A stretch of DNA of 53,893 bases from a virus. Its lineage: Duplodnaviria; Caudoviricetes. The notes beneath the pieces are model-generated. The model had not been told where the DNA came from. It was given only the letters and a program-made list of their open reading frames with translations, and made no database searches. This document shows, one piece after another, positions 2,348-38,903 of this stretch. Within the stretch, counting starts at the first letter, position 1. Every line of letters begins with the position of its first letter. The translations under genes and the position numbers were made by a program. The DNA lies in the IMG/VR virus record IMGVR_UViG_3300036760_000504, positions 1 to 53,893 of that record, one strand, 5' to 3'.

Positions 2348-2701
2348 ATGCCAGCCTGGCCTGCTACGCTTCCACAGGAACCTAACAACGGGGAGTATAA
2401 AGAAACACCCCCCCATGTCCTGATACAGGATGATAACCAGGAGGGACCAGCCAATGCCCGCCGCCGGCTCGGGGTGCGCAAACTCTCGCTGCCATTTCGC
2501 TTCGACGCAGTGCAGACCGATATTTTTGATGCATGGCTGGATACTGACATAGCGGGCGGGGCATTGTCCTTCGATTTTTCCTGGCCACCGGCCCCTCGGG
2601 CTACCCAGAACGTGTCCGCCCGGATCACGGCGATCCCCACATATGAACATAAAGGCGGCGGGGTTCACGATGTAACTTTGGAGATGATTATTTTGCCATG
2701 A
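2348..2701 (+). CDS. Minor tail / distal tail protein (lambda gpM-like position)
   Basis: Directly after TMP, AAGGAG RBS, MPAWPATLP start, GPANARRR motif. Confidence 0.65.
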   Translation: MPAWPATLPQEPNNGEYKETPPHVLIQDDNQEGPANARRRLGVRKLSLPFRFDAVQTDIFDAWLDTDIAGGALSFDFSWPPAPRATQNVSARITAIPTYEHKGGGVHDVTLEMIILP

Positions 2702-3168
2702 CCGAAACTGACGCCTTCCGCCGAGCTATCAATGCCCAGGAAACTGGGGAACTTTTCCACATCCTGGTGACTATTGAACACCCGGATCTGATAGCTCCGC
2801 TCCGTCTGAATGCCGGGCCGGTTAATGTTGTGAGCCGGGGAGAGACTTTCCTGGCCAGCTTTGTGGAGGCTACGATCATTGACCAGGACCCCACCAGGTC
2901 ACCCCAGGCGCAGTTGACCTTTAGCAATGTCAACCGAGAGACGGTGATCGCCCTACAGAGCACGCCGACGCCGTGCATAGTCACCATGGAGATTGTCAAG
3001 GGCAGCGACCCGGACACGGTTGAGCGGAGCTTAACCAACTTAGAGTTGCGGAATGTGGAGGGGGACGAGATATCGATCCGGGGGGACCTGACCCCGGCGC
3101 GGTGCAAGCCTAAGAAAGCCGTAGATTACTATTTCACCCCGACTACGGCGCCAGGGCTTTTTCAGTAG
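2698..3168 (+). CDS. Minor tail protein (DUF1833-like)
   Basis: AINAQETGE..LVTIEHPDL..YYFTPTTAPGLF pattern; synteny. Confidence 0.7.
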   Translation: MTETDAFRRAINAQETGELFHILVTIEHPDLIAPLRLNAGPVNVVSRGETFLASFVEATIIDQDPTRSPQAQLTFSNVNRETVIALQSTPTPCIVTMEIVKGSDPDTVERSLTNLELRNVEGDEISIRGDLTPARCKPKKAVDYYFTPTTAPGLFQ

Positions 3169-3174
3169 GGGAGG

Positions 3175-3624
3175 CTAACTTTCAAGCCGCATTTTAAGGT
3201 TTTGCAAGGCTTGATAAATTTCATAAGCATCTTTGCTGTGATTGCGGTTCTCTAATTTTTCTAAGCCGGTGCCGGGGTTGGTCACGATGAAAAGATTGAT
3301 TAAAATCCTCACCCCCCCTTGCACATCGGTCAATTGAATTTGCAACCTGTGGTTGGGGATAGGGTTCTGATGGGAGCCATAAAAATATGCCATTACCCCT
3401 TCAGCAGGTTTGTCAAGGATTATTAAGTTTGGAGCGGAGCTCACCAACATGAATCCTTTGCTAGAAGTGTCATTGATTATTTCATTCGCCACTTTTTCTT
3501 TGGTCGTTTTATGAATGATAATTTCTGGTTTGCCGCTTTCAGTTGGAATGACAGGGATAGCAGCACAACCATCCAACACCAGCAGGGCACAGAGCACAAT
3601 GAACCATGAAATTTTCATGACCAT
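3175..3624 (-). CDS. Lipoprotein moron inserted antisense in the tail operon
   Basis: Hydrophobic signal ending LDG-C; AAGGAG RBS before the ATG at 3621; AT-richer than flanks. Confidence 0.7.
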   Translation of the reverse strand: MVMKISWFIVLCALLVLDGCAAIPVIPTESGKPEIIIHKTTKEKVANEIINDTSSKGFMLVSSAPNLIILDKPAEGVMAYFYGSHQNPIPNHRLQIQLTDVQGGVRILINLFIVTNPGTGLEKLENRNHSKDAYEIYQALQNLKMRLES

Positions 3625-3681
3625 CTCCTTAAAAGGGTTTTTACTATGTTAGCCCAAAACCAGCAGAAAAATATCAAGAAA

Positions 3682-4098
3682 ATGAGCCTGGAAGAATTTG
3701 CGGTCCTGGCCATCGGCGTCCCTTTTCACGACCATGGCCGAGATTTCCAGGGCTGGGATTGCTGGGGCCTGGTAGTCCGAGCCTACCGGGAATGTTTCGC
3801 CGTGGAGTTGCCAGATTACTCCTATATCTCAGCTCTGAATTCTCAGGAGGCCGGGGAACTTCTTGAGGCCCAAATGAAATTATGGATAGAGGTTCCGGCG
3901 CACCAGGAGCGCCCTGGTAACGTGATTCTGCTCCGACATGGCTCATGGCCTTGCCATGTGGGCCTGGTGGTTAAGGCGGGCCTCATGCTGCACGTGGATA
4001 TGGATATTGACACCTGTGTCGAACCCTATAACTCCGGGGCCTGGAGGCACCGGCTCATCGGGATTTATCGCCATGCCGAACTTGCCAGCGATAATTGA
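3682..4098 (+). CDS. NlpC/P60 tail-tip protein (gpK-like)
   Basis: GRDFQGWDCWGLV and HVGLV catalytic Cys/His motifs. Confidence 0.85.
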   Translation: MSLEEFAVLAIGVPFHDHGRDFQGWDCWGLVVRAYRECFAVELPDYSYISALNSQEAGELLEAQMKLWIEVPAHQERPGNVILLRHGSWPCHVGLVVKAGLMLHVDMDIDTCVEPYNSGAWRHRLIGIYRHAELASDN

Positions 4099-21145: not shown

Positions 21146-21294
21146 CCCGAATGTCTGCGCCAAATGGATTAAACCCCTGGAACCCGGGAAGCCGCCTTTC
21201 TGCCTAGCCGATGAGGAGTGTCGGACCCAGGGGTTACGCTGGGCACCGCGGGCCGACTCGGATGATGATGGTGAGATTGACTAAGAGGGAAAGG

Positions 21295-21600
21295 ATGGCA
21301 AAGCCTCAGAAACCCGAAACAGCCTTGAAAAGGTCGTGCTCCCAACTCTTGCGAACGTTCGGGGGATTCTCTATCCCTATCCCTGGCGGCGCCTATGGAA
21401 TGCCAGGCGCCCCCGACCGGATAGTATTTTTTCAGGGGCAGGCTTTCGCAACTGAGTTTAAGGCGCCCGGCAAAAACCTGGGGCCAAAGCAAGTTGAGAT
21501 CAAAGAGCGCATTGAGGCCACCGGTTGCCCATACCTGCTCATCCGGTCGGTAAGGGATTTCGTGCAGGCCCTGGGCCTGCCAGTGAGGGGGCTGTTCTGA
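21295..21600 (+). CDS. VRR-NUC-like nuclease / resolvase
   Basis: PETAL..GAPDRIV..TEFKAPGKNLGPKQ. Confidence 0.8.
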   Translation: MAKPQKPETALKRSCSQLLRTFGGFSIPIPGGAYGMPGAPDRIVFFQGQAFATEFKAPGKNLGPKQVEIKERIEATGCPYLLIRSVRDFVQALGLPVRGLF

Positions 21601-21804: not shown

Positions 21805-22392
21805 GTGGAAGAACCAAAACCCAGATTTTATGCGTCGGTGAAGTGGGGAATCGAAAACCCGACCGTTATGCTGGTCGCCGTGTACACGCCGCCGCCAACA
21901 GACCACCTTCATGTCTTTCGGGAGTTGTATGAGGAGGGCTTTTACTTTGATGACCTCCTGCCTATTGCTAAGGCCTGGGCCGCAGAATTTAACATCAGGA
22001 AGTTTTTCGCAGACCCCAAGGAGCCGGAGTTTATCAAACGGATGCGGCGGCAACGGTTGTGGGCGGTGGAGGGCCGGGATGAGCTGGCTCTGGCCCGGAA
22101 TCTGATAGGCAAAAGGATGAGGCAATCAATAACAATAGCGGCGGCATTCAAGGGGGAGCACGACCCGGCCAAGCGGTCGGTGCTTATGAAGAGCATTGTC
22201 GGGGGGATCAGTTTTTCCCAGGACTGCCCCCGGACGGTGCAAGAGTTTTTCCATTATCGGATGCCGGAGAAAAATCCCAGGAAGCCGTCTCGGGACAAGC
22301 CCTTGGATATGGACAATTTCGGTATTGGGGCACTGCATTTTCTGGTTTTGGGGTTGGCGAGCGAGGTAACGCCGCGGGTGAGGTGGTTGTGA
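21805..22392 (+). CDS. Stand-alone terminase nuclease-like (RNase H fold) domain, catalytically degenerate
   Basis: SVKWGIENPT (usual VDWG..NP), HVFRELY, FFADP, CPRTVQEFFHY, KPLDMDNFGIGALHF (usual D.H..DALRY). Confidence 0.6.
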   Translation: MEEPKPRFYASVKWGIENPTVMLVAVYTPPPTDHLHVFRELYEEGFYFDDLLPIAKAWAAEFNIRKFFADPKEPEFIKRMRRQRLWAVEGRDELALARNLIGKRMRQSITIAAAFKGEHDPAKRSVLMKSIVGGISFSQDCPRTVQEFFHYRMPEKNPRKPSRDKPLDMDNFGIGALHFLVLGLASEVTPRVRWL

Positions 22393-22614: not shown

Positions 22615-22821
22615 TGGCATACGATCCGAGCAAAGACGTGGAGTTGAAGGCGTGGCGCATCCCATTCCGACCATGGCAGTATTGGGAGGCTTTGAAGTGC
22701 TCAAAGGCAACGGGCTGATCATCCCCGACGGCACCCTGAATCACTTGGTGGAAACCTTGCTCCAGAAGGAGGCAGCGGGGGCCTTCATGAACAAGCTGGG
22801 ACTCAGACCCGGAGACCTAAA

Positions 22822-22980
22822 ATGATGCTCTTCGGCCCGCCACCCAAGGACGGCTTCGTTACCTACGTGGATGCCAGGAAGGTGCGTTCTACAAACCCCG
22901 GTTACTGTTTCCTCAAATCCGGCTGGCGCCGGGTGGGGAAATCAAAGAGTGGGAAAATCCTGTTACAGGCAAACCAATGA
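22822..22980 (+). pseudogene. C-terminal remnant of a Mom-like DNA-modification protein
   Basis: Manual translation FVTYVDARKVRSTNPGYCFLKSGWRRVG; only 52 aa. Confidence 0.45.
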
Positions 22981-23489
22981 GCCGCAACCTTGCCGTTTTT
23001 GACTACCGCCCCGACTGGCCCCTCTTCCTGGCCCTTGATTTCGGCTGGTGGAACAACTTCACCGGCTGGGTGCAGCCGTCGGGAAACGGTGATCGGGTGA
23101 TCGTGCTCTACGGCCACTATCAGGAGATGCGAACCAATGAGGAAAACGCCAAGCTGGCCCTGGCCATTCACCAGGCCCGGGGTTACGGCCAACTCACCGG
23201 CGGCTGGGGCGACCCTTCCAAGCCGGAAGCGTTGCGTTCATATTCTCAGGTGTTCGGGGCCTTAATCCTGGGGGCCGGGGGCCGGGTAGAAGATGGCCAT
23301 GAACTAGTGCGCCGGTGGCTCAAGGCGGCGCAGATGACCCGGGGCGAGTCGGGACTGGTGTTCTCCCGGCATTGCCCGGCCCGGCTGTTCAAAGAGTGGC
23401 GAGACTACCGGGAGCATCGGCCGGGTATCGGGGCACATCATAGCTGTGACGCGGTGCGCTACTTTCTCAAGGGCTGGACGGGGCGATGA
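22977..23489 (+). CDS. Terminase large subunit nuclease domain as a separate gene
   Basis: LALDFGW, GWGDPS, VEDGHELVRRWL, FSRHC...EWRDY, HSCDAVRYF with acidic residues intact. Confidence 0.72.
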   Translation: MSRNLAVFDYRPDWPLFLALDFGWWNNFTGWVQPSGNGDRVIVLYGHYQEMRTNEENAKLALAIHQARGYGQLTGGWGDPSKPEALRSYSQVFGALILGAGGRVEDGHELVRRWLKAAQMTRGESGLVFSRHCPARLFKEWRDYREHRPGIGAHHSCDAVRYFLKGWTGR

Positions 23490-23610
23490 GAGCACGCTGA
23501 GCGATCCGCCCATGCAATGTGTAGGGTGTGGGGGAGTTCGGGGCAAGGCGGGGCACAAACTGATTTGAGACTTAATCTGTCCACAAGCGCCGGGAGGAGC
23601 GGCACGGCAT

Positions 23611-24093
23611 ATGGGTAAGCGGGAAGAAACCGATAATCTGGCGATGGAGGTCTATTCGCTAACTTTGCAAAACATGAGCAAGGTGCAGATCGCCAAATAT
23701 CTTGGTATCGACCGGAAGCAGGTTTACCGCCTGATTAAGCGCTACAAAGCCATCCTCCGGTGGCTCGCTGACCATATCGACGGCGCGCTGCACCTGGGGG
23801 AAACCCTTGTCGGCCTTAAACAGTTATACCGGGATGCCCTGGAAAACATTGGGAAGTCGGACCCCGGAAGCGCGGTTGCCGTGGGCTGGGCGAGGGTAGC
23901 CCTGGACGCCCTGAAGGAAATGAAGAAACTCCTGCAAGAGTGCGGGGCGGTGTTCAAAATGCCGGAGTCGGTAGAGGACGGGATACCGTTCGATGACCCG
24001 GAGATTCGGAGAGATTACATGGAACTTCAGGCGCGGGCTTGGGCCAAGGGCAAGGTACTGGCCGGGGGGAAGGAGGGGAGCGGGGATGAGTAA
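23611..24093 (+). CDS. Putative terminase small subunit (HTH)
   Basis: SKVQIAKYLGIDRKQVYRLIK HTH followed by helices; GGAGG RBS; packaging context. Confidence 0.6.
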   Translation: MGKREETDNLAMEVYSLTLQNMSKVQIAKYLGIDRKQVYRLIKRYKAILRWLADHIDGALHLGETLVGLKQLYRDALENIGKSDPGSAVAVGWARVALDALKEMKKLLQECGAVFKMPESVEDGIPFDDPEIRRDYMELQARAWAKGKVLAGGKEGSGDE

Positions 24094-25285
24094 GAAGCCG
24101 GTGGGATTGAAGGATTTCAAAACTGAAATGGTGGCGGTGGCGGACTTGATCCCCTATGTCAACAATCCAAAGGCGCACCCGGCCGGCCAGGTGGACAAGA
24201 TCGCCTCGTCAATCAAAAATTTCGGCTTCCTGGTACCCCTGGTAGTGGACGGGGGAAATGAAATCGTGGCGGGCCATGGGCGCTATGAAGCAGCGCAGAA
24301 GCTCGGCCTGGGGGTGGTGCCATGCGTCCGGGCGGATAATCTCACGCCTGGTGAGGTCAGACTTTTCAGGATTGCTGACAACCGCACCGCCGAAAGCGCC
24401 TGGTTCCCCGAATCGCTGGCACTCGAACTCAAGGCCCTGGAGGAAATGGACTTTGATTTGGGGTTGACCGGGTTTGACCTTGATGAGCTTGAGGAAATGG
24501 GAATCGGCGCGGGCAACGACCCTTCCCCGGAAGACCCCGGCCCACAGATTGACCGGGCCGCGGAGTTGCAGGAGAAGTGGGGGACGAAGCGGGGCCAGAT
24601 ATGGCAGGTCGGGAGACATAGGGTTACGTGCGGAGATAGTAATAAGCAATCCGATGTTAATTTATTATTAGGAAATAATAAACCAGATACGTTAATTTTT
24701 GATCCTGAATGGGATCAGATGAATGGAATTATAAAATATAACTGCGAATATTATAAGTCAGTATTGGCTTTTACCGATGCAAGAAGAATCGGGGAATCTA
24801 TAAAAATATTCGGAATACCTACTTGGTTATTTGTTTGGGATGCTCAAGCATGTTGGTACACCCCAAATAGACCATTACAGAGGGCTAAATATTGTTTGTG
24901 GTATGGAGATATTACTAAATATAACTTCGATGGGGCACATTATGGGGAGCCATTAGAATCGAAAACAGTGAGCAATACCCGCGGCACATATAATTATAAA
25001 TCAGACCCAAGAGGCAAACACTTAGCTGACATTTACTGTGAACAACTTACGAAAGTTCACAAAGAAAGCGGCCACAGCCATAGTAAACCTTTAGATTGGA
25101 TGCGGTGTTTAATCGGTTGCTGTGGAATTGGTGATGTTTTTGATCCTTTCCTTGGAAGTGGTGCAAGCCTTGCAGCTTGCGAGAAATTAGATAGGATTTG
25201 TTATGGAATAGAAATTAATCCGGCATTTATAGCCGTAGCCTTGGATTTGGCCGAACAAATGGGCTTGCAACCGGAGTTATTATGA
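24086..25285 (+). CDS. ParB-like domain fused to a DNA methyltransferase
   Basis: LIPYVNNPKAH..IVAGHGRYEAA..RIADNR; GRHRVTCGDS; IFDPEW; HSHSKP; VFDPFLGSG. Confidence 0.85.
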   Translation: MSKKPVGLKDFKTEMVAVADLIPYVNNPKAHPAGQVDKIASSIKNFGFLVPLVVDGGNEIVAGHGRYEAAQKLGLGVVPCVRADNLTPGEVRLFRIADNRTAESAWFPESLALELKALEEMDFDLGLTGFDLDELEEMGIGAGNDPSPEDPGPQIDRAAELQEKWGTKRGQIWQVGRHRVTCGDSNKQSDVNLLLGNNKPDTLIFDPEWDQMNGIIKYNCEYYKSVLAFTDARRIGESIKIFGIPTWLFVWDAQACWYTPNRPLQRAKYCLWYGDITKYNFDGAHYGEPLESKTVSNTRGTYNYKSDPRGKHLADIYCEQLTKVHKESGHSHSKPLDWMRCLIGCCGIGDVFDPFLGSGASLAACEKLDRICYGIEINPAFIAVALDLAEQMGLQPELL

Positions 25286-26013
25286 GCCGCCCGCAAATCC
25301 TTTTTGATCAGATAGGGCTTCCCGAGTCTTTCCAATTGGGCAATGGCCCTCTCCCGGAATCCAGGCCAGTCAATTTCTTTGGCCAGGGGATGATAGTTCA
25401 GTTTTCCCACTTTGAAGAAATCCACAAGGGGGGCCGTGGCATCCAGGAGTCGGTACACCGCTTCCGGGTCAATGACGGGCTCAAAGGAAACCCACGTTTT
25501 GATACCAGCATCATGGGCGATCCTGAGAGATTCAATCCGGTCTGCCGGGAGAGCGGCGCCGGGTTCCCACTCCACGCTGACAACCGGGTCGTCATGGGTC
25601 AAGGTTACGCTCCAGGCGTTGAGGGGGTTCATCTTGAGCAGGTCCATATCTCGGATGATTCCCCAGGAGCCGCCTTTGGTAAGAATGGTAGCCGTGAGTT
25701 TGTTTTCCATGAGGGTTTTCAGGGCCATGCGGGTGATCTTTTTGGTTTTCTCACAAGGCTGGTAGGGGTCACTGGTGAAGCTCAAAAGGATTTCCCGAAG
25801 GTCACCGGCCATCTTTGGGGCTTCGTTAAACAGTGCGGTCAGGATGCCGGGCCGGGCTTGAATGTAATCCGGAGAAGAGAATTTCTTCCGGTCGGTAAAT
25901 GTGGCAGATGGTGCAAAACAGTAAACACAGGCATGGGAACAGCCTTTGTAGAGATTCAGGGCCAGGGGAGAATATTCTTTAGCCTTGCCACGGGGTTCAT
26001 AGATTGCTGGCAT
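25201..26013 (-). CDS. Radical SAM protein (SPL-like)
   Basis: NLYKGCSHACVYC CxxxCxxC; SFTSDPYQ; ILTKG; WVSFEP. Confidence 0.85.
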   Translation of the reverse strand: MPAIYEPRGKAKEYSPLALNLYKGCSHACVYCFAPSATFTDRKKFSSPDYIQARPGILTALFNEAPKMAGDLREILLSFTSDPYQPCEKTKKITRMALKTLMENKLTATILTKGGSWGIIRDMDLLKMNPLNAWSVTLTHDDPVVSVEWEPGAALPADRIESLRIAHDAGIKTWVSFEPVIDPEAVYRLLDATAPLVDFFKVGKLNYHPLAKEIDWPGFRERAIAQLERLGKPYLIKKDLRAAHNNSGCKPICSAKSKATAINAGLISIP

Positions 26014-26182
26014 TAGATTTTTCCTCCAGACAGGTAAGAAATTTAGAAACCCAATCAGGGATATTGCGATATCCCTGTTCCCAGTCCTCCACCCGGCGCA
26101 CCGTGACCCCCAGGGCGGCGGCTAAATCCTGTTGCCGCCAGCCCTTAGAGTTTCGTAAATCTTTGAGGTCAGCCGGAGACAT
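25997..26182 (-). CDS. XRE-family HTH protein
   Basis: LKDLRNSKGWRQQDLAAALGVTVRRVEDWEQG. Confidence 0.85.
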   Translation of the reverse strand: MSPADLKDLRNSKGWRQQDLAAALGVTVRRVEDWEQGYRNIPDWVSKFLTCLEEKSNASNL

Positions 26183-26183
26183 A

Positions 26184-26864
26184 TTAATCTTCAGCCTCCA
26201 TTGCGGCCAGGATTTGTTTCACCTGTTCCAAATCAGATTTTTTGCAGAACAGGGCCACCGTCTCACTCTGCTCATCCGTAAATTTTTCAATCAATTTATC
26301 AAACGGGTCGGGGTTTTCCTGGATTTGCTCAAACTGCTCTCTGGAGAGTACCCCGTCATTATAGCCGCCATTATCATTCCAGGCCAACATGACCCAATCG
26401 GGATTCACGGTATCGGAGTCGATCATCCGCCATTCGTCCACAACCCTATAGGTGATGGTGCCCCAGGGATAGGTTTTAATGTCCGGCTCAGAGCAATAAT
26501 GCTCGCTCCGCAGGGGGATAAAAAACTGATGATTGTTGCCGTTCCAAACGTTACCAGTGATTTCCGAGAGTTGCGCTCGGTGCAAACTGCCCTCATTGGA
26601 GATCATGTCGTAAATTTCGTTTTCATTGTCCTCAGTAATCTCGATTTTGGTTCCATCATCGGTAATGAGGGTGATGATGGTTTCGCCCCGACCGATGTTA
26701 CCAAAACAGCCCCGAGTGTCGATGCGCCGATATTCCGCCCAATCCAGCATGTAGGCCAGATTTGCCCTGGTGGCATCCATTTCCTCTGGGACCGCCCACG
26801 CGTCCCGATCACTGCGGTAAATGCCCTCGGCCAATTCGGTGATCATTTGAATTTTCATTGTCAT
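26184..26864 (-). CDS. Acidic hypothetical protein
   Basis: AGGAGG RBS; first gene of the inverted cassette. Confidence 0.7.
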   Translation of the reverse strand: MTMKIQMITELAEGIYRSDRDAWAVPEEMDATRANLAYMLDWAEYRRIDTRGCFGNIGRGETIITLITDDGTKIEITEDNENEIYDMISNEGSLHRAQLSEITGNVWNGNNHQFFIPLRSEHYCSEPDIKTYPWGTITYRVVDEWRMIDSDTVNPDWVMLAWNDNGGYNDGVLSREQFEQIQENPDPFDKLIEKFTDEQSETVALFCKKSDLEQVKQILAAMEAED

Positions 26865-26888
26865 GCCTCCTGTAGATTTGTTAAATAT

Positions 26889-26917
26889 AGATTAATCCCG
26901 GTTTGCGGGAATGTCAA
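26889..26917 (-). promoter_or_regulatory. Sigma70 promoter of the inverted cassette with a palindromic spacer
   Basis: Minus strand TTGACA-17 bp-TAATCT; spacer contains TCCCG-N5-CGGGA. Confidence 0.7.
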
Positions 26918-26961
26918 GAAAAAAAGAGAAGGTAAGTGAAAAATAATTTCGAGGCCCCCCC

Positions 26962-27288
26962 ATGCGCAAAATAGCCCTCATCCGCTCATCCCCCACGCTC
27001 TACCGGTTGGCGCTCGCCTGGCCCGCGGTGGATAGGGAGGATGTCACCCCGGCCCTGGATGCCCCGGCGGACCCCTGGGCCTGCATCCGGTTCGACTTCA
27101 CCCGCCTGGCATATCTGGCCGATGTGTCCGCCGGAGTTGCCCTCGCTGGGTTTGACCGGCTCAAGGCCCATGGGATCATCACCCCTGATGGCGGCCTGGC
27201 CCCTACGGTAGAGAAGTATTTCCGGGCTGAGGGGCTGGCCGGGTTCGGGGTGAAGGTGAAGCCGCCAAAAGCCCCGGCAGCCGAGTAA
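26962..27288 (+). CDS. Hypothetical protein preceding the terminase ATPase
   Basis: Ends 3 nt before the next ATG; paralogous fragment at 22673-22825. Confidence 0.6.
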   Translation: MRKIALIRSSPTLYRLALAWPAVDREDVTPALDAPADPWACIRFDFTRLAYLADVSAGVALAGFDRLKAHGIITPDGGLAPTVEKYFRAEGLAGFGVKVKPPKAPAAE

Positions 27289-27291
27289 CCC

Positions 27292-28248
27292 ATGTTCACC
27301 GCCGACAACCGCCGCCTGATTGAGCACTATCGCCAGCACCCATTTTCCAATGACGCTGAGCTCCTACTGTTCGTCAAGGCCCTGTTTAAGGGGAAGGCCA
27401 GCGAACCCCTCAGCATCCCCCAGGCCCAGGTATGCCCCGAACATGATTCCCCCGCCCAATATTTCTGCGACGCCGTCTTTGAACGCACCCTGAACGCTAT
27501 CTGCTGGGCGAACCGGGGCGGCGGCAAGACCCTCCTGGGGGCGCTGGTGACTTGGCTGGATACGGTATTCAAGGCGGGCTGCTCCACCCAAGTCCTGGCC
27601 GGGTCCCTTGAGCAGAGCAACCGCATGTACGAACACATGACCGGCGGGGGGGATGGCTGGGGCCTGGTGAACGAAAACTTCTATCACCTGCTCGCCTCAG
27701 CCAAACAAATGCGCCGGGGGAAAACTGACAAAGACGGCGAAATGCTCACCCGGTCGATGGTGCTGAAGAACTTCTCAAGCATCAACCTGCTTACCGCCTC
27801 CCCCAAGAGCGTCCGGGGCGCACATCCCCAGAAAGTCAAGCTCGATGAGATTGACGAAATGGACCCCCGGATTTATGAGGCGGCGCTGTCAACCCCGATG
27901 ACTAAGGGCGGGCACCAGGCCAGTACCCACATTTACAGCACCATGCACAAGACTTACGGCCTTATGCAGCGGGTCGTAGAAGAGGCCCCGGCACGGGGCT
28001 ATCGGCTTTACAAGTGGTGTGTTCTGGACGTCTTGGAGCGGTGCAAGGGTCGGGAATGCACCGGGTGCGATCTGTACCCCGAATGCCAGGGCCGGGCCCG
28101 GGAAGCAGACGGCTACTATTCGATTGAAAACGCTATCACCAAAAAGCGCCAGGTGTCTGAACAGACGTGGCTTTCGGAGTACCTGTGCCAGATTCCTAGC
28201 AGTGAAGGGTTGATTTACCCTGAGTTCGATATGTGTCTTGTGGTCTGA
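27292..28248 (+). CDS. Terminase large subunit, ATPase domain only
   Basis: Walker A ANRGGGKT, SVRGAH, Walker B VKLDEID, YSTMH coupling motif; ends at SEYLC..GLIYPEF, the usual ATPase/nuclease linker. Confidence 0.82.
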   Translation: MFTADNRRLIEHYRQHPFSNDAELLLFVKALFKGKASEPLSIPQAQVCPEHDSPAQYFCDAVFERTLNAICWANRGGGKTLLGALVTWLDTVFKAGCSTQVLAGSLEQSNRMYEHMTGGGDGWGLVNENFYHLLASAKQMRRGKTDKDGEMLTRSMVLKNFSSINLLTASPKSVRGAHPQKVKLDEIDEMDPRIYEAALSTPMTKGGHQASTHIYSTMHKTYGLMQRVVEEAPARGYRLYKWCVLDVLERCKGRECTGCDLYPECQGRAREADGYYSIENAITKKRQVSEQTWLSEYLCQIPSSEGLIYPEFDMCLVV

Positions 28249-28315
28249 GGTACACCCCCCTCGCTAACCACCCCCGTTATTCGCTCCGATTAACCCCCCC
28301 TGAGAATTAAAAAAA

Positions 28316-28372
28316 AATTAGCGGACGCAAAATAAAACTTGACATAACCATTAGCGTGTGCTAACCTATAAT
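28316..28372 (+). promoter_or_regulatory. Repressor-controlled early promoter with two operators
   Basis: TTAGCGGACGCAAA 28318; TTGACA 28339-17 bp-TAACCT 28362; TTAGCGTGTGCTAA 28351 is the exact reverse complement of the 11982 operator. Confidence 0.8.
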
Positions 28373-28374
28373 CA

Positions 28375-28960
28375 ACCAATCAATCAATCATAATCAAACC
28401 AGGAGGTTAGCGCCAACCGACAAAAAACCAAAAAAATCAGGGCGGGGGTGGCCAGGCTCACGGCGGCCAGTAAAAAAAAGCAGAAACCGGACCCCAGCCA
28501 ATCAGAGACGGGATAACAACCGTAGAGGGTAGCGCCTCATAAAAATTGCAAATAGAGCGCAGGAGGCCCCAGCGGCCCCGAGGCTCCCCCCGGAAACCAG
28601 ATCGAATCTGGCAGTTGCGGGTAGGCGGCACGACCGAAAGTGACCTGGCGGCAAGCGCCAAGGTGATGAGCCTGAATCTTGAGACAATTTAGGGGAGCAC
28701 GGCCCCGGCAACCGTGGCGAAGCTAAAAACCGGAAACGAGGCGAACCAGAGGCGGCGCGACGTAGGGAAACCCCAGGTAAGGCCGGCAGAGTAGCCCAGG
28801 CGGTGAAGTGTAGGCCGGGGAGTATCCGAAAGCGCCAAGCATGGAGAGCAGCCGGGAAGGGCGACGGTGGTGATGACCTTTAACTGAAGCAAGGCTCTGA
28901 ACGGGGTTCGGGAGTTCTGGCGGATTCCTGGACCTTCTTGAGCGCACTTGCTCAAATCTA
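28375..28960 (+). ncRNA. Candidate long structured non-coding RNA / leader
   Basis: No plus-strand ORF of 60 aa or more until 28948; follows a strong promoter; several hairpins and GAAA/GCAA loops. Confidence 0.4.
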
Positions 28961-29113
28961 AAAACTTGGAGTCAAGATCATGCAAAGCACAGTTCAGCGA
29001 ATCCACCCAGAAGCGAACCAGAAACCCGAACTCAACCCCTTACCTGGGAAGCACTCATGTTACGTCTGCGCCGATAATCAGGGTTGCAAACCAGGCCCCA
29101 AAAGGAGGTCGTG

Positions 29114-29296
29114 ATGCCCTTATACAAATATCTCTGCGTGGATTGTGGAGAGGAGGACTCCCGAATTGCCGGGGTTGACGACTACACGGCCCTGTGCATT
29201 GAGTGCGGCGGTCCCATGCTGAGGCTGGACGAGGATATTTGGGCGCCGTTGTGGTCGGAGCAAGAGGCCGAGGCGGTGCAGGAGGTGGAACCGTGA
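29114..29296 (+). CDS. FmdB-like zinc-ribbon protein
   Basis: MPLYKYLCVDCG...CIECGGPM; AAGGAGG RBS. Confidence 0.75.
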   Translation: MPLYKYLCVDCGEEDSRIAGVDDYTALCIECGGPMLRLDEDIWAPLWSEQEAEAVQEVEP

Positions 29297-33354: not shown

Positions 33355-33588
33355 ATGAAGACTATCATGCTTATTGTCACGTTGTTAATGTGTTCCGGGT
33401 GCGCTTCGACGCCCATGAATGTCGTCATGACCAACCCGGGAACCGGCAAGTCGATCTACATCGCGCATTATTCGTATGGGGTCGGATTTGGAGCTATAGG
33501 CCCCGCCATCGTAGCCGAACAACAGCAGAAAAAAGCCATCGAGGCTGCCAAGATGATGGGGTTCACTGAAATGCAGGTGGTGAAATGA
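33355..33588 (+). CDS. Small lipoprotein
   Basis: MKTIMLIVTLLMCSG-C lipobox; AGGAGG RBS. Confidence 0.7.
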   Translation: MKTIMLIVTLLMCSGCASTPMNVVMTNPGTGKSIYIAHYSYGVGFGAIGPAIVAEQQQKKAIEAAKMMGFTEMQVVK

Positions 33589-35417
33589 AAATTCAATCCA
33601 TCGAAATCCACAACGTACTCGCCCTGGAGCAGGTGACGCTTGAACTCCAGGCCCCCATAAACCTACTTATCGGCCCTAACGAGGCGGGCAAGTCCAGCAT
33701 TAGGGATAGTCTGCAAGTCGCCCTCACGGGCCAGGCCCGGGGCTTAAAGAAGCACGAGGATCAAGCATACCTCATCCGGGAGGGCGCCAAGGCCGCGGAT
33801 ATCAAGATCATCCTGGCGGACGGCCAGGACCCGATAACCTGGCATAAGACCCCCAAGGTAGCGGCCACCAGAACCGGCCCGATCCCCGATGACGCGGTTA
33901 TGATGAGCATCCTGGCGGACCCCATGCACTTCCTTTCTCTGGAAGATAAGGCCCGGCGGGAGGTGCTTTTCCGGTTGATACCCGGACTTTCCCCCACCTC
34001 CGGCGCCCTGGCAAAAGAGCTGGCAGCGGTCCCCGGGGTTAAAGAAATCATCGGGGAAGAGGTGCACCCGGCCTGGCAAGCGGTTTCCGGCCTGGGTCAC
34101 ATGGCCGCGACTGAGGGTTTTCAGAAAGCCGAAAACGAAGCCATAATCCGACGTCGCCTCGCCAAACGCACCCGAGACGAGGCCCAGGTGAAGGACCCCG
34201 CAACCAAGGCCACCATCGGCGGGGTGCTCCGCATCCTTCCCGACATTCAGTCGGCGGACGTGGAGGCCGGGCTGTCCACGATCCGGGCCGAACGGGACAA
34301 ACTGCAGCGCACCCGGGGCAAAGTAGAGGCCCAGGCCGACCAGCTCCCGGAGTTGGAAGCGGCCCTGGTATCCCTGGAAGCCTCCCCCCCGGAGGCCCCG
34401 GACCCCGACCGCCCGGTGGAGGACTTTGTCAAGGCACTGGAAATCAACCAAGGCATCCTGGTAAAGTGTCGGGCGAAAGTGGCGGCGATGACTGAGGGTC
34501 AGGACCCGCAGAAGTTCCCGGCCCTGTGCCCGGCTTTTAATATCGGGTGCCCCAGCGCCGGGAAGGAGGCCATCAAGGGCACGAAGCCCAAGGACGTGGA
34601 CCCCAAGGCCCTGGCTAAGGCCCAGGCCGACCTCCAGGAGCAGGAAAAGGAAGTCGGGCTGATCGAAGCCGACCTTGCGGCCGCACGGCTGGCCCAGGCC
34701 ACCTATGATGATTACACGAAGCAGCGCCAGGCCCTGGTGGACAAGATCGCCAAGATTAAGGAGGCTCAGGGTCAGGCCGTGGACGCGGCCACCATCGACG
34801 AACAGATCACCGCCCTGGACCAGCGCATGGTTATCGGCCACGAACTGCTGGACGCGGTGCGGGAGTTCTGGCGCAAGAAAGATGCGGCGGACCAGGCGGC
34901 CGGCAAGTTGGCTGAGGTCGAAAAGGAGATTGCCCTGTACGATGCTTTGGCTAAGGCCCTGGCCCCGGATGGTATCCCGAGCACCTTGATCGCTGAGGCC
35001 CTGGGACCGGTGAATGAACGGTTGGCCTTTGCCTCCGGGTATCTATTCCCGGACATTGACGAACATGAACCCCTGCACCTTACGCAAGATCTGGAGGTTT
35101 ACCGGGGGATCACCCCCTATGCGCTTTTATCGAAGTCCGCCAGATACAGAACCGGGATTGCTTTTCAATTTGCCCTGGCCGTTCTATCCGGGGCAAGGAT
35201 CATGATGATCGATGAAGGCGACATCCTGGACCCTCCGAACAGAGCCAACCTCATTGATTTTCTCCTGGCCATCCGTCAGGATTTCGACACGATCCTCGTA
35301 TTCGCCACTAGTGACCATGCCGACCCTTCACCTATCCCGGAGCTGGCAGTCTGGTGGTTGGAGGAGGGGAGGATCAGCCCGGTGGTGATGCAGGAGATGA
35401 AGGAACAGGCCGCCTGA
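33585..35417 (+). CDS. SMC/Rad50(SbcC)-like ATPase
   Basis: Walker A GPNEAGKS, coiled coil with central CPAFNIGCP, LSKSARY signature, Walker B MMIDEGD. Confidence 0.85.
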   Translation: MKIQSIEIHNVLALEQVTLELQAPINLLIGPNEAGKSSIRDSLQVALTGQARGLKKHEDQAYLIREGAKAADIKIILADGQDPITWHKTPKVAATRTGPIPDDAVMMSILADPMHFLSLEDKARREVLFRLIPGLSPTSGALAKELAAVPGVKEIIGEEVHPAWQAVSGLGHMAATEGFQKAENEAIIRRRLAKRTRDEAQVKDPATKATIGGVLRILPDIQSADVEAGLSTIRAERDKLQRTRGKVEAQADQLPELEAALVSLEASPPEAPDPDRPVEDFVKALEINQGILVKCRAKVAAMTEGQDPQKFPALCPAFNIGCPSAGKEAIKGTKPKDVDPKALAKAQADLQEQEKEVGLIEADLAAARLAQATYDDYTKQRQALVDKIAKIKEAQGQAVDAATIDEQITALDQRMVIGHELLDAVREFWRKKDAADQAAGKLAEVEKEIALYDALAKALAPDGIPSTLIAEALGPVNERLAFASGYLFPDIDEHEPLHLTQDLEVYRGITPYALLSKSARYRTGIAFQFALAVLSGARIMMIDEGDILDPPNRANLIDFLLAIRQDFDTILVFATSDHADPSPIPELAVWWLEEGRISPVVMQEMKEQAA

Positions 35418-35672: not shown

Positions 35673-38600
35673 ATGGGACTCATACGCCGAGGATTGGAAT
35701 ATGTGCAGCGATTGGGTGGCCTCTTGGGGAGGGGTTCGGACGACGGGCGTGATATAGTGATGCGCCAGGCCGATCCCATCTCCCCCACCTTCGGGGCCGT
35801 CGAACAGAGGTTCATGGCCGGCTCTTTTAGCCTGTCAAACCTCTTGCCCGGCGTGACAAAACCATACACCCAGCACGTCTGGGTCTATGCCTGTGTCAAT
35901 GCCATCGCCCAGAACATCGCCGGGGTCCCCCTGAATTTCTACTCCGGCACGAAAAAGAACAAGCGCCTGATAGAGTCAGGTCCCCTGGTCAAGTTATTTG
36001 AAACCCCGAACCCCATGATGAGCGGGTATCAGCTCATCGAAGCCACGCTCATTTTCCTGGGGATCACCGGGGAGGCGTTCTACATCCTGGACCGGCCCAA
36101 TATCACCGCCCTGCCGAGAGAAATCTGGACCTTTCACCCTAGCCGGTTTGAGCATGTGCCAGCGAAGAATGGCGGAGGCCAGGGGTGGATTTACAGCAAG
36201 GGCAGCCAACGAATCCCCCTGGAACCGTATGAGATGGTCCATTTCAGGCGGTTCAATCCCTACGATGATTACCGCGGCCTTTCTCCTATTGAGGTGGCCC
36301 GGCTGAGTCTTGAACAGGATAACTATGCCGCGCAATACAACCGCAATTTTTTCATCAATGGCGCCCAGCCCGGCGGGGTCCTGGAAAGCAAAGAGAACCT
36401 GATGCAGGAGGAGTTTGACCGCCTCCTGGCGCAATGGAATGACCGGCACCAGGGCATCGACAAGGTCCACCAGATAGCCCTCCTGGAAGGCGGAATAACT
36501 TACAAGCAAACCAGCCTGTCTCAATCAGACATGCTCTTCCTGGAAGGCCGGAAGCTGAATCGGGATGAAATCCTGGGCGGGATTTACAAGGTCCCCCTGG
36601 GTGAACTTGGGCTTAATGAAGATGTGGGATCTGAAGCGCGGGAAAAGGTGCGCCGGAAACAGTTCTGGGAGACATGCCTTGACCCCCAGATGGTCCTCCT
36701 CGAGATGGGGTTATGGAGCCAGCTATGTCGTGACCTCACCGGCCCTGAAGTATGGCCGGAGTTTGACCGCAAATCCGTCCCGGCCCTTCAGGAAGACCGG
36801 GACCTGCTCTTGGGGCAGGCGGGGAAACTTTGGGCCATGGGCTATCCGGCCAACGTGGTCAACGAATATCTGGATCTGGGGTTGCCTAAGATTGAGGGCG
36901 GCGATACTGGCTACCTCCCCTTCAATTTGCAGCCGGTAGGGTCCGTCGCTTCCGCTCCCTCGGCTACTGAACCGCAGAAAGCTACGGTCATCTCAATTCA
37001 GGATGCTCCGCTAAAATCCCTGCCCGCCCCAGCCAAGGCCAAGCATGACCCTAAGACATATTGGCAGGAATGGAACAAACTGCGCTCTGCTCTGGAGGAA
37101 AAGGCCCACAGCAAAATCAAGAGATTTTTCTATGAGCAGCGCAAGGTCCAACTCAAACTCCTGGCCGACAAGCTGGGCGGGAAAGCGGTCTTCAAAGAGT
37201 TTGTGGACGACCTCCTGTTCCCGGCGGCCGAAGCCAACGAGCAACTCCAAAAGACATTATCCGGTCTTTACCTGAACATCGGCCAGGCCGCCGGTGAAGA
37301 CCTCTACGCCGGTCTGAATTTTGACCCTTCGGACTTTGTTATGGCCGACAGCGACGCCATTTCCGTTCTGCTGGAAAAGCTCGTGCAGAAGGTGGTGGAT
37401 ATTAACGAGATCACCCGCAGTCAACTCCGGGACGCTATATCTGAGGGCCTGTCGAAAGTTGAGTCTGTCGGCAAAATTCAGGACCGGGTGCGAGAAGTCT
37501 TCAACTCCTATGAGCACCCTGACAAAGGATCGTTTTCCCGTAGTTTGACCATTGCCCGAACGGAAACGGGCCAGGCCATGGCAACGGCTCGGGATTCGGC
37601 CATGGACCAGTTGAAGGTGGAGAAACTTGAGTGGGGCACGGCGGGGGACGGGGAAGTCAGGGAATCCCACGCGGCCCAGGATGGGATGATAGTGCAGCGC
37701 GGTGAAACCTTCCCGAACGGCTGTCGTTATCCCTGCGATCCGGCGGGGGAGGCGGGGGAAGTGATCAACTGCTTTCTGGACCACCAGGTTCCTATTTTCA
37801 CTACTGAAGGTTGGAAACCCATTGGCAAGATTCGGCCTGGCGACATGGTGCTTACTCATAGAAACCGCTTCCGGCCTGTTTTAAGGCTGTCACCCCAGCC
37901 CACTTATGCCGGCAAAGCAGTCAAGTTGGTCCTGTCTGGTACTACAGGGAACGGACGCCGCGGCATCTTGATTACCCCGAACCACAAATTTTTAATGGCG
38001 GGGGGTTCATGGAAGCGGGCACAGGACATTCGGGCTGGCGAGTCTGTGCAGGTCATGGCTTCTTTTTGCGGGTATTGCGGCACCCCCATCCCCTACTGGC
38101 GGAAATACTGTGACCATTCCTGCTTGAGCAAAGCCATTACCAAAAAGCAATGGAGCAACTCGGCCCACCGGGAAAACATCAGCCGCAAGGCCAGTGCGCA
38201 GATGATAAGGGAATATGCGGCGGGGATAAGAGACCCGAAAGAAATTGTCAAAAAGGCCCGGAGGGTTTGCTTCGAGAAGTATGGTGCCGGTGGAATTTTT
38301 GCAATAGCGGATCGGTCTCCAGGGACGCCGTTTCGAGAAAGCATAGAGGCCGGAATCACCAGGAAATGGGGGTCTCGTCTGGCAATGCTCAAAAAGACGG
38401 CCTTCGTTGGTTGCGGCAAGGCAAGTTGGCATGGCTCAAGTTTTGACCGGAAGCTGAAAGCAGTGTTAGACAAGGAAGGCAGAGGATACATTCAACAGTT
38501 CCGGGTAGGTAAAAGGCGAGTCGATTTTTACCTGCCTGATGAAAAGCTCTTCATTGAATGTGACACCCCTATCTATCACGGCCCAGAAAGCGTGTTTGGC

Positions 38601-38903
38601 TACCATAGAAACGAACGGAAAAGAGACCTCGAAATTCTTACTCAATACCCAGACCACAAAATAGAGCACATAATTTTTGACGGCAATGCTCCCCCCCGCC
38701 ATAAGACCTTCGACCTGCTCACTTTAAATCATGCCGGAACTTACGCCCAAATTAAAGTTGAAATATCCGAGGCCGACATTGTTGAACTCAGGAAGCCCCG
38801 GCGCACCTATAACTTCGCAGTAGAAGAGGATGAAAGCTATATAGCCAAGGGGTTTGTCGCATCGAACTGCCGGTGTGTCAGCATTCCCGTACTGGAGGGT
38901 TGA
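35673..38903 (+). CDS. HK97-type portal fused to gpF/gp7-like head morphogenesis domain, containing an intein
   Basis: WVYACVNAIAQNIA, RGLSPIE, FFINGAQPGGVL; then RSLTIARTET, W.TAGDGEVRESH, IN-C[intein]N-CRC. Confidence 0.9.
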   Translation: MGLIRRGLEYVQRLGGLLGRGSDDGRDIVMRQADPISPTFGAVEQRFMAGSFSLSNLLPGVTKPYTQHVWVYACVNAIAQNIAGVPLNFYSGTKKNKRLIESGPLVKLFETPNPMMSGYQLIEATLIFLGITGEAFYILDRPNITALPREIWTFHPSRFEHVPAKNGGGQGWIYSKGSQRIPLEPYEMVHFRRFNPYDDYRGLSPIEVARLSLEQDNYAAQYNRNFFINGAQPGGVLESKENLMQEEFDRLLAQWNDRHQGIDKVHQIALLEGGITYKQTSLSQSDMLFLEGRKLNRDEILGGIYKVPLGELGLNEDVGSEAREKVRRKQFWETCLDPQMVLLEMGLWSQLCRDLTGPEVWPEFDRKSVPALQEDRDLLLGQAGKLWAMGYPANVVNEYLDLGLPKIEGGDTGYLPFNLQPVGSVASAPSATEPQKATVISIQDAPLKSLPAPAKAKHDPKTYWQEWNKLRSALEEKAHSKIKRFFYEQRKVQLKLLADKLGGKAVFKEFVDDLLFPAAEANEQLQKTLSGLYLNIGQAAGEDLYAGLNFDPSDFVMADSDAISVLLEKLVQKVVDINEITRSQLRDAISEGLSKVESVGKIQDRVREVFNSYEHPDKGSFSRSLTIARTETGQAMATARDSAMDQLKVEKLEWGTAGDGEVRESHAAQDGMIVQRGETFPNGCRYPCDPAGEAGEVINCFLDHQVPIFTTEGWKPIGKIRPGDMVLTHRNRFRPVLRLSPQPTYAGKAVKLVLSGTTGNGRRGILITPNHKFLMAGGSWKRAQDIRAGESVQVMASFCGYCGTPIPYWRKYCDHSCLSKAITKKQWSNSAHRENISRKASAQMIREYAAGIRDPKEIVKKARRVCFEKYGAGGIFAIADRSPGTPFRESIEAGITRKWGSRLAMLKKTAFVGCGKASWHGSSFDRKLKAVLDKEGRGYIQQFRVGKRRVDFYLPDEKLFIECDTPIYHGPESVFGYHRNERKRDLEILTQYPDHKIEHIIFDGNAPPRHKTFDLLTLNHAGTYAQIKVEISEADIVELRKPRRTYNFAVEEDESYIAKGFVASNCRCVSIPVLEG
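37770..38867 (+). mobile_element. Intein (366 aa) with DUF559/Vsr-like endonuclease
   Basis: N-term CFLDHQVPIFTTEGWKPIG..GDMVLTH; ITPNHKFL block B; TYNFAVEEDESYIAKGFVASN then +1 Cys; internal QFRVGKRRVDFYLPDEKLFIECD..YH. Confidence 0.9.

Follow-up and report, generated by a model that had tools for sequence, protein, structure and literature searches.

A large terminase encoded as two genes in permuted order in a tailed-phage genome and its uncultured relatives

In a review of packaging machinery (PMC7617512), the large terminase (TerL) consists of an ATPase and a nuclease with a flexible linker between them, and a comparative study (PMC7824862) calls the TerL-associated nuclease domain a universal feature of tailed phages. 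A tailed-virus sequence (Duplodnaviria; Caudoviricetes), IMG/VR virus record IMGVR_UViG_3300036760_000504, raises the question of whether the two domains must share a chain. This stretch, analyzed over its whole length of 53,893 nucleotides (nt) and referred to below as the window, was proposed in an initial sequence-only reading to encode TerL as two genes in reversed order, with the nuclease gene upstream of the ATPase gene. Sequence comparisons lead us to conclude that this is a permuted two-gene large terminase, nuclease gene first, that is real, ancient, and selected, as it is in dozens of uncultured relatives.

The motor half is an open reading frame (ORF) with a Walker A motif (ANRGGGKT), a Walker B motif (KLDEID), and a coupling (C) motif (STMH). 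In a 34-sequence family alignment that includes one-chain TerLs, the columns of G77, G78, K79, and T80, of D185 and E186, and of S216 and T217 are invariant. The protein ends in ...SEYLCQIPSSEGLIYPEFDMCLVV (in a longer view, ...SSEGLIYPEFDMCLVV) immediately before the stop codon. This terminus aligns with ...DFDRSVHV of P0103, a one-chain relative of 474 amino acids (aa), just before the P0103 nuclease domain, so that the end of the ATPase ORF corresponds to residues ~286-293 of P0103. In the closest one-chain relatives the equivalent stretch reads ...AVFGDFDRSVHV and is followed by RPCDYDPNLPLYRTIDFG..., the first nuclease strand. No nuclease-like frame lies 3′ of the ATPase gene; the frame after the stop is crowded with stops, and a six-frame search adds no nuclease piece. 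The coordinates, the motifs, and the alignment to the one-chain relative all agree with the earlier description of an ATPase gene that stops at the linker and lacks a frameshifted continuation. The lid region of the ATPase also contains four cysteines (C251, C256, C259, and C265) that are invariant in split and fused family members; because they are invariant across both, they suggest a metal-binding knuckle in the lid.

The cutting half is nucA, a stand-alone gene with LDFG, GDPS, and H..DAVRY motifs, located 3802 nt upstream of the ATPase start. The sequence-only reading had noticed this RNase H-like gene, its intact motifs, and its distance of about 4 kb. It had also placed the gene before a small-terminase (TerS) candidate; nucA does directly precede a gene for a helix-turn-helix (HTH) protein (23611-24093), whose resemblance to small terminases is only middling. 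The predicted protein, with the N-terminus MSRNLAVFDYRPDWPLFLALDFG..., aligns end to end with residues 295-460 of P0103 (BLASTP E 3e-12), and on P0103 the ATPase end and the nucA start neither overlap nor leave a gap. Together, the two alignments therefore indicate that the two ORFs make a whole large terminase, cut at the linker, with nothing lost or duplicated.

Additional evidence for the identity of nucA came from profiles and a predicted structure. Against a TerL family profile, nucA gave an hhalign probability of 99.1 (E 7.6e-19) over columns 305-478, beyond the 318-residue ATPase. In an exhaustive search with the nucA profile, the ten closest matches (E<1e-30) were all <=179 aa, and the distant matches fell in the C-terminal part of proteins of 370-560 aa. 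A nuclease alignment of 63 rows, made up of nucA copies and their profile-search relatives, had Terminase_3C in 23 rows, Terminase_6C (PF17289) in 23, and Terminase_6N (PF03237) in 20. The AlphaFold2 (AF2) model of nucA has a pLDDT of 92.6, and its top Foldseek matches in the PDB are the terminase nucleases of SPP1 G2P, D6E TerL, P22, and human cytomegalovirus (HCMV) UL89, with 2wc9, 5oe8, and 4dkw among the best. Of 33 nucA copies, 32-33 retain the acidic residues D21, D79, and D158 and a conserved histidine. The sole match to nucA among GenBank phages is in the annotated TerL of Arthrobacter phage Wollypog, where it is confined to the C-terminal half (residues 269-411). Judged by profile and by predicted fold, nucA is a TerL nuclease domain.

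Is the arrangement peculiar to this genome? A word-index protein search with the ATPase returned 170 matches, of which 120 were listed. Of those listed, 104 are proteins of 200-362 aa with 49-100% identity, all without a nuclease domain, and the other 16 are one-chain TerLs of 427-536 aa with 36-45% identity, six of which carry PF17289. GenBank phages yielded a single weak ATPase match, at 22% identity in Microcystis phage Mvi-JY20, and the split terminase therefore has no cultured relative in that collection. The 92 distinct loci recovered in two scans of viral contigs comprise 38 of the split clade, 39 with a fused terminase in one ORF, and 15 with long or contig-end-cut ORFs whose C-terminal part lies beyond reach of the nuclease profile. 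When the same split was sought in these related phages, 32 of the 38 split loci proved to have a nucA homologue upstream of the ATPase gene and on its strand, at a distance of 491-3818 nt; five of the remaining six have <1.4 kb of upstream sequence. In every relative, each terminase piece has its own start and stop.

The distribution of the two forms points to one event. In a tree of ATPase domains from 66 proteins, for which every second split protein was used and four fragments of <280 aa were dropped, split versus fused is a single change, on a branch with an SH-aLRT value of 97. Ratios of nonsynonymous to synonymous substitution (dN/dS, NG86) are 0.12-0.21 for nucA, 0.05-0.11 for the ATPase, 0.14-0.25 for the HTH protein, and 0.11-0.15 for nucB, a second nuclease-like gene, and these values are rough because dS is >1. 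At the level of sequence, it is strongly supported that the split has been kept clade-wide, with a single origin on the tree, and that purifying selection has kept both genes functional (Table 1).

Table 1. Position and character of the terminase genes and their neighbors in the window
Feature	Position	Strand	Description
TerL ATPase subunit	27292-28248	+	318 aa; full ASCE ATPase and lid with four-cysteine cluster; ends in interdomain linker
nucA, stand-alone TerL nuclease subunit	22977-23489	+	170 aa; RNase H-like; D21, D79, D158 intact
nucB, second stand-alone TerL-nuclease-like gene	21805-22392	+	195 aa; degenerate active site
HTH protein, small-terminase-like candidate	23611-24093	+	160 aa; between both TerL genes; Pfam HTH_23
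o108	26962-27288	+	conserved small cassette protein; here directly before ATPase (stop TAA, 3 nt, ATG)
orf57, short paralogue of o108 C-terminal half	22652-22825	+	o108 profile matches 22664-22801, E 4e-15
orf52 (phrog_24928-like)	22822-22980	+	stop overlaps nucA start (ATGA)
ParB-N/DNA methyltransferase fusion, cargo	23993-25285	+	inside split
Radical SAM protein, cargo	25201-26013	-	inside split
226-aa protein, cargo	26184-26864	-	no family match in domain and family scans
Conserved structured RNA-like element	28400-29010	+	~600 nt directly downstream of ATPase gene; found with nhmmer

The window derives from a metagenome assembly, and contigs from run X1 leave 23033-23454 uncovered, which might suggest an assembly error or a dead, decaying terminase gene. 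X1 is possibly the genome's own source, and the gap proves nothing. Against such an explanation, contigs from another study's run bridge 22834-23234, 23205-23955, and 26986-28523, covering the nucA start, the junction of nucA with the HTH gene, and the whole ATPase gene including its stop, so that an independent assembly confirms the ends of both genes. The same arrangement recurs in 32 viral loci and in 15 loci of metagenome-assembled genomes (MAGs), from many samples, and the purifying selection and invariant catalytic residues do not fit a dying gene. The split is not an assembly artefact or a relic, and we give that explanation almost no weight.

The genome also encodes no other recognizable terminase. 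The two ends of the window share an identical 127 bases, and in the virus record the genome has direct terminal repeats and is rated 100% complete by CheckV; the window is therefore a complete circular assembly of a tailed-phage genome. A six-frame profile search found only three terminase-like pieces, at 21808-22389 (nucB), 22986-23486 (nucA), and 27304-28245 (the ATPase), and a search of the genome for a further terminase with TerL_ATPase, GpA_ATPase, and Terminase_3 gave no match. With clade-wide conservation, one change on the tree, purifying selection, and the status of sole terminase, the proposal of a TerL encoded as two genes in reversed order has held up. A 610-aa gene just 5′ of the portal gene was considered as the true terminase and rejected, since it encodes an SbcC/AAA_23-type ATPase. 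The usual terminase slot before the portal is thus occupied by this gene, at 33585-35417.

Interrupted terminase frames are known. The terL gene is broken by group I introns in Jug phages (PMC12880540) and by inteins in Microcystis phage Mic1 (PMC7156551), and a large structured RNA-like element lies directly after the ATPase gene in the window, raising the question of whether splicing, an intein, recoding, or DNA rearrangement restores a single chain from the two pieces. In those phages, however, the pieces are colinear, and RNA or protein splicing joins them again; here they are permuted, independent genes, and no intron or intein was found. Protein-coding genes of both strands lie between them, in all relatives both pieces have a start and a stop of their own, and the nucA start overlaps the stop of the upstream gene. 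Intein halves would not fit, since 8 residues follow ...EFD and 9 precede the first nuclease strand, and Rfam identifies no intron family. Moreover, satellite-like copies of the ATPase gene (see below) altogether lack the RNA element found downstream of the ATPase gene in relatives. Trans-splicing, split inteins, frameshifting, and excision of a 5.3-kb circle were each rejected as routes, given the reversed order, the separate starts and stops, the missing intein space, and the absence of an intron family. We regard rejoining as very improbable.

We consider it quite probable that the following explanation holds as a whole. An ancestral one-chain TerL would have been cut once, at its flexible interdomain linker, in a tailed-phage clade with relatives in Thermodesulfobacteriota MAGs, and would now exist as two proteins: a motor subunit consisting of the ATPase and lid, and a cutting subunit, the RNase H-like nucA product. 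The HTH protein would mark phage DNA, the ATPase would form the translocating ring on the portal, and nucA would be recruited non-covalently for the initiation and termination cuts that are made elsewhere by a covalently attached domain. The simplest explanations of the reversed order are a tandem duplication of a TerS/TerL unit and loss of the outer halves, leaving nuclease, TerS, and ATPase, or alternatively a transposition of the nuclease-coding segment. The data fit both routes and cannot tell them apart. The physical association of the two chains, their division of labor, and the route of rearrangement are inferred.

This arrangement differs from known packaging systems in specific ways. 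One-chain TerLs of the T4/Terminase_6 type (T4 gp17, the TerLs of D6E and P74-26/G20c, and SPP1 G2P for its nuclease) have the same ASCE ATPase module, with Walker A, Walker B, and C motifs, and the same RNase H-like nuclease module, with three acidic residues; here, in contrast, the modules are encoded by two genes, cut at the linker, with the nuclease gene first and a small-terminase-like gene and cargo in between. Terminases of the HK97 type are assisted by a separate HNH endonuclease, and HK97 TerL keeps its own nuclease domain. The HK97 helper is thus an unrelated HNH protein, whereas in the split clade it is the terminase's own RNase H-like domain that is the separate protein. In a full-text literature search of limited coverage, no paper turned up that describes a natural terminase with its ATPase and nuclease in two genes.

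Several observations, besides the roughness of the dN/dS ratios, weigh against our explanation. Pfam Terminase_6N (PF03237) scores 14.8 bits on the ATPase of the window, below the gathering threshold of 22 (E 0.022); Pfam gives no match to nucA; and a sequence search of the PDB with the nucA profile gave nothing relevant. Since direct Pfam and PHROG scans are weak or empty, the identity of nucA rests on the profile-profile comparison, the exhaustive profile search, and the structure. A scheme with just two subunits is also made less simple by nucB, the second nuclease-like gene. It matches the TerL family profile over columns 312-478 (hhalign probability 98.3, E 1.4e-14) and the D6E large terminase 5oe8 (E 0.002), and it is found in 17 of the 38 split viral loci, always upstream of nucA. 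Its first catalytic aspartate is replaced in all 15 copies compared (by K in 13, N in one, and Q in one), the third is retained in just one of the 15, and one MAG copy has lost all three catalytic residues. Its dN/dS is nevertheless 0.11-0.15, and nucB is probably a paralogue that has lost catalysis and kept some role.

The assignment of the HTH protein as the small terminase is open to similar doubt. The protein lies between nucA and the ATPase in 34 of the 38 split viral loci. Its AF2 model (pLDDT 84.5) has whole-span matches only to the G20c/P74-26 small terminases, with 107-108 residues aligned and Z scores of 7.6-8.1, a middling level that is common among helical proteins, and Foldseek found no match to the model at E<=1e-3. 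The TerS family phrog_7067 is matched by two of 16 HTH family members, at ~1e-3. An HTH homologue stands directly upstream of the fused TerL in two loci (L089 and L090), an arrangement that an ancestral TerS-TerL order would predict; any HTH match at all was found in just 3 of 92 fused loci. The assignment thus depends on these middling scores and on those three loci, and we call the HTH protein small-terminase-like; it is probably the small terminase.

A further difficulty is that the ATPase gene is not always accompanied by nucA. Among 25 informative split loci in MAGs, nucA is present in 15 (cut by the contig end in two), one has nucA fragments in two frames, and nine have none; among the viral loci, L041 has 4 kb of upstream sequence and no nucA. 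Searches of whole MAGs found no terminase nuclease at all in three nucA-less MAGs with an ATPase-only gene. The ATPase gene can therefore persist without nucA in cis, which counts against an obligatory cis pairing. In six nuclease-less loci (L041, L097, L109, L110, L113, and L122) the ATPases keep all motifs, and five of these six ORFs stop right after the linker (...HV, then V or I, then the stop); that of L041 runs 13 residues further.

These loci bear on an alternative in which the ATPase-only protein is the entire motor. The ATPase gp16 of phi29 packages DNA without an active nuclease on its own chain and works with a structured packaging RNA (pRNA) encoded in the genome; phi29 packages protein-primed unit genomes, for which no cutting is needed. 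The split-clade ATPase could act likewise, or a different nuclease, such as the product of the VRR-NUC-like gene at 21211-21600, could do the cutting, with nucA and nucB doing other jobs such as resolution of branched DNA or anti-defense. Consistent with this, Walker motifs are intact in ATPases without nucA, three MAGs lack any terminase nuclease, further nuclease genes lie near the split terminase, and the weaker Foldseek matches of nucA include the Holliday-junction resolvases Ydc2 and RuvC. However, the nearest relatives of nucA in sequence and fold are terminase nuclease domains, not resolvases, and nucA starts exactly where the ATPase gene ends on one-chain relatives. In 32 viral loci it also keeps synteny with the genes for the ATPase and the HTH protein, and most of the loci that lack it are small integrase/primase islands or decayed remnants rather than complete phages. 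Unlike phi29, the window keeps an intact nuclease gene beside the ATPase, and its RNA element is known only as a neighbor of the ATPase. We consider a motor that works without nucA unlikely, and favor the two-subunit terminase.

The nuclease-less loci themselves resemble small mobile elements. L109 and L110 are islands of ~8 kb with an integrase, two genes without assignment, o108, the HTH gene, a small ORF, and the ATPase gene; L109 (1126-8873) adjoins a tRNA-SeC gene and is followed by host transporter genes. L122 (3-8885) has an integrase, a DUF3987 protein, a helicase, the HTH gene, and the ATPase gene, and then host defense genes. L113 and the viral L041 have an 846-aa primase-like protein in common, and the MAG with L113 also has a nucA-bearing locus on another contig. 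No match to portal or capsid genes was found within L109, L110, L122, L113, or L041. In L097, L103, and L116, host genes or insertion sequence (IS) elements are adjacent, and the HTH gene is frameshifted or the ATPase truncated. From gene content we infer that L109, L110, L122, L113, and L041 are satellite-like elements and that L097, L103, and L116 are decaying remnants; L111 and L120 are assigned to neither group.

Phage satellites such as phage-inducible chromosomal islands (PICIs) and capsid-forming PICIs (cf-PICIs) carry their own packaging genes. L109, L110, and L122 resemble these in being islands of ~8-9 kb with an integrase, primase-like and packaging genes, and host genes at their borders. 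They differ in carrying the HTH protein and an ATPase-only TerL (with o108 in L109 and L110) and no nuclease, and no att repeat was found at the L109 island. The pattern would fit satellites that borrow a helper's nuclease. A bolder proposal, which we regard as possible and rather doubtful, is that the split made the nuclease freely exchangeable, that the islands, which occur in the same host lineage, are satellites packaging their own DNA with nucA and capsids borrowed from a helper, and that the catalytically dead nucB is a non-cutting third subunit or regulator.

Current motor models use movement between two covalently linked TerL domains. A large clade with separate halves in permuted order shows that the covalent link is not essential, and provides a natural test of why TerL is normally one chain. 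Isolated T4 gp17 domains, when mixed, reportedly do not package DNA; if this is right, the natural split is the more instructive. The clade offers material for asking how the nuclease is recruited and silenced during translocation, which half docks on the portal, and whether separable halves let satellites or anti-defense pressures reshape the motor.

Split-clade loci were also found in MAGs, which give a tentative indication of hosts. Among one-genome-per-species contigs, all 27 such loci are in MAGs labeled Syntrophobacterales, Desulfobaccales, Syntrophales, Desulfobacteraceae, Thermodesulfobacteriota, 'Deltaproteobacteria', or 'Proteobacteria', whereas Planctomycetota MAGs hold most of the 53 fused relatives (37-42% identity). 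The host-phylum divide between the split and the nearest fused forms is sharp, subject to binning errors, and the host assignment is tentative because binning can mislead.

Downstream of the ATPase gene, 835 nt (28249-29083) hold no long ORF. The sequence-only reading had placed a promoter after 28248; a consensus scan found no + strand promoter in 28249-29083, where TTGACA and TATAAT are 22 nt apart. Instead, iterated nhmmer searches found a core of ~600 nt in 26 related loci (E 1e-46 to 1e-120), always on the ATPase strand and downstream of the ATPase gene, and in most of 23 aligned copies the element runs into GGAGG...ATG. A RIBOSUM-scored RNAalifold structure of the 23-sequence MAFFT alignment has 94 pairs in 22 helices. 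Paired cells amount to 85.1%, compared with 33-49% in controls whose partners were slid by 1-3 columns, and 51 pairs are changed on both sides, compared with 22-37 in the slid controls. Covariation scores 0.322 for the structure, 0.06-0.12 after sliding, and 0.163 after shuffling, and none of 500 shuffles reaches 0.322; the structure was derived from the same alignment on which it was tested, which favors it. Rfam gave no match over 28200-29150 at E<=1. The comparative analysis makes 28400-29010 a candidate for a new large structured RNA, perhaps the leader of a downstream early operon starting at 29084/29410. A link to packaging would be speculation.

The split terminase sits in a cassette with the conserved order o108, nucA, HTH protein, ATPase. 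In its compact form, as in L025, o108 occupies 1759-2070, nucA 2094-2588, the HTH gene 2654-3073, and the ATPase gene 3142-4023. The o108 family is present in 27 of the 38 split viral loci, usually directly upstream of nucA; o108 itself has no PHROG family match and no Atlas lead above 0.8. The window has two o108 paralogues, a short one (orf57) before nucA and a full one before the ATPase gene, and most relatives have one, directly before nucA. In tblastn comparisons orf57 is 52-62% identical to the o108-like genes that precede nucA in L004, L007, and L009. The paired copies may be left over from the duplication by which the gene order became permuted.

In the window the cassette is stretched, with genes for the ParB-methyltransferase fusion, the radical SAM protein, and the 226-aa protein separating the HTH gene from o108 and the ATPase gene. 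A variant contig from run X2 joins 24478 to 26959, omitting the C-terminal part of the ParB-methyltransferase and the other two genes, which suggests that the stretch between the HTH gene and o108 is variable cargo. The longest ParB-methyltransferase ORF shares its first 101 nt (23993-24093) with the end of the HTH gene; the true start of the methyltransferase gene is probably an internal methionine near 24086, because the Pfam and PHROG matches begin at about residue 40.

No tRNA genes were found in the window, and none of the families of Rfam 15 matched across it at the gathering threshold. The gene set includes a portal/MuF fusion, a protease, a major capsid protein, a tape-measure protein, a tail J-like protein, replication genes, and several DNA methyltransferases. 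The portal ORF (35673-38903, 1076 aa) also matches MuF-like head morphogenesis families.

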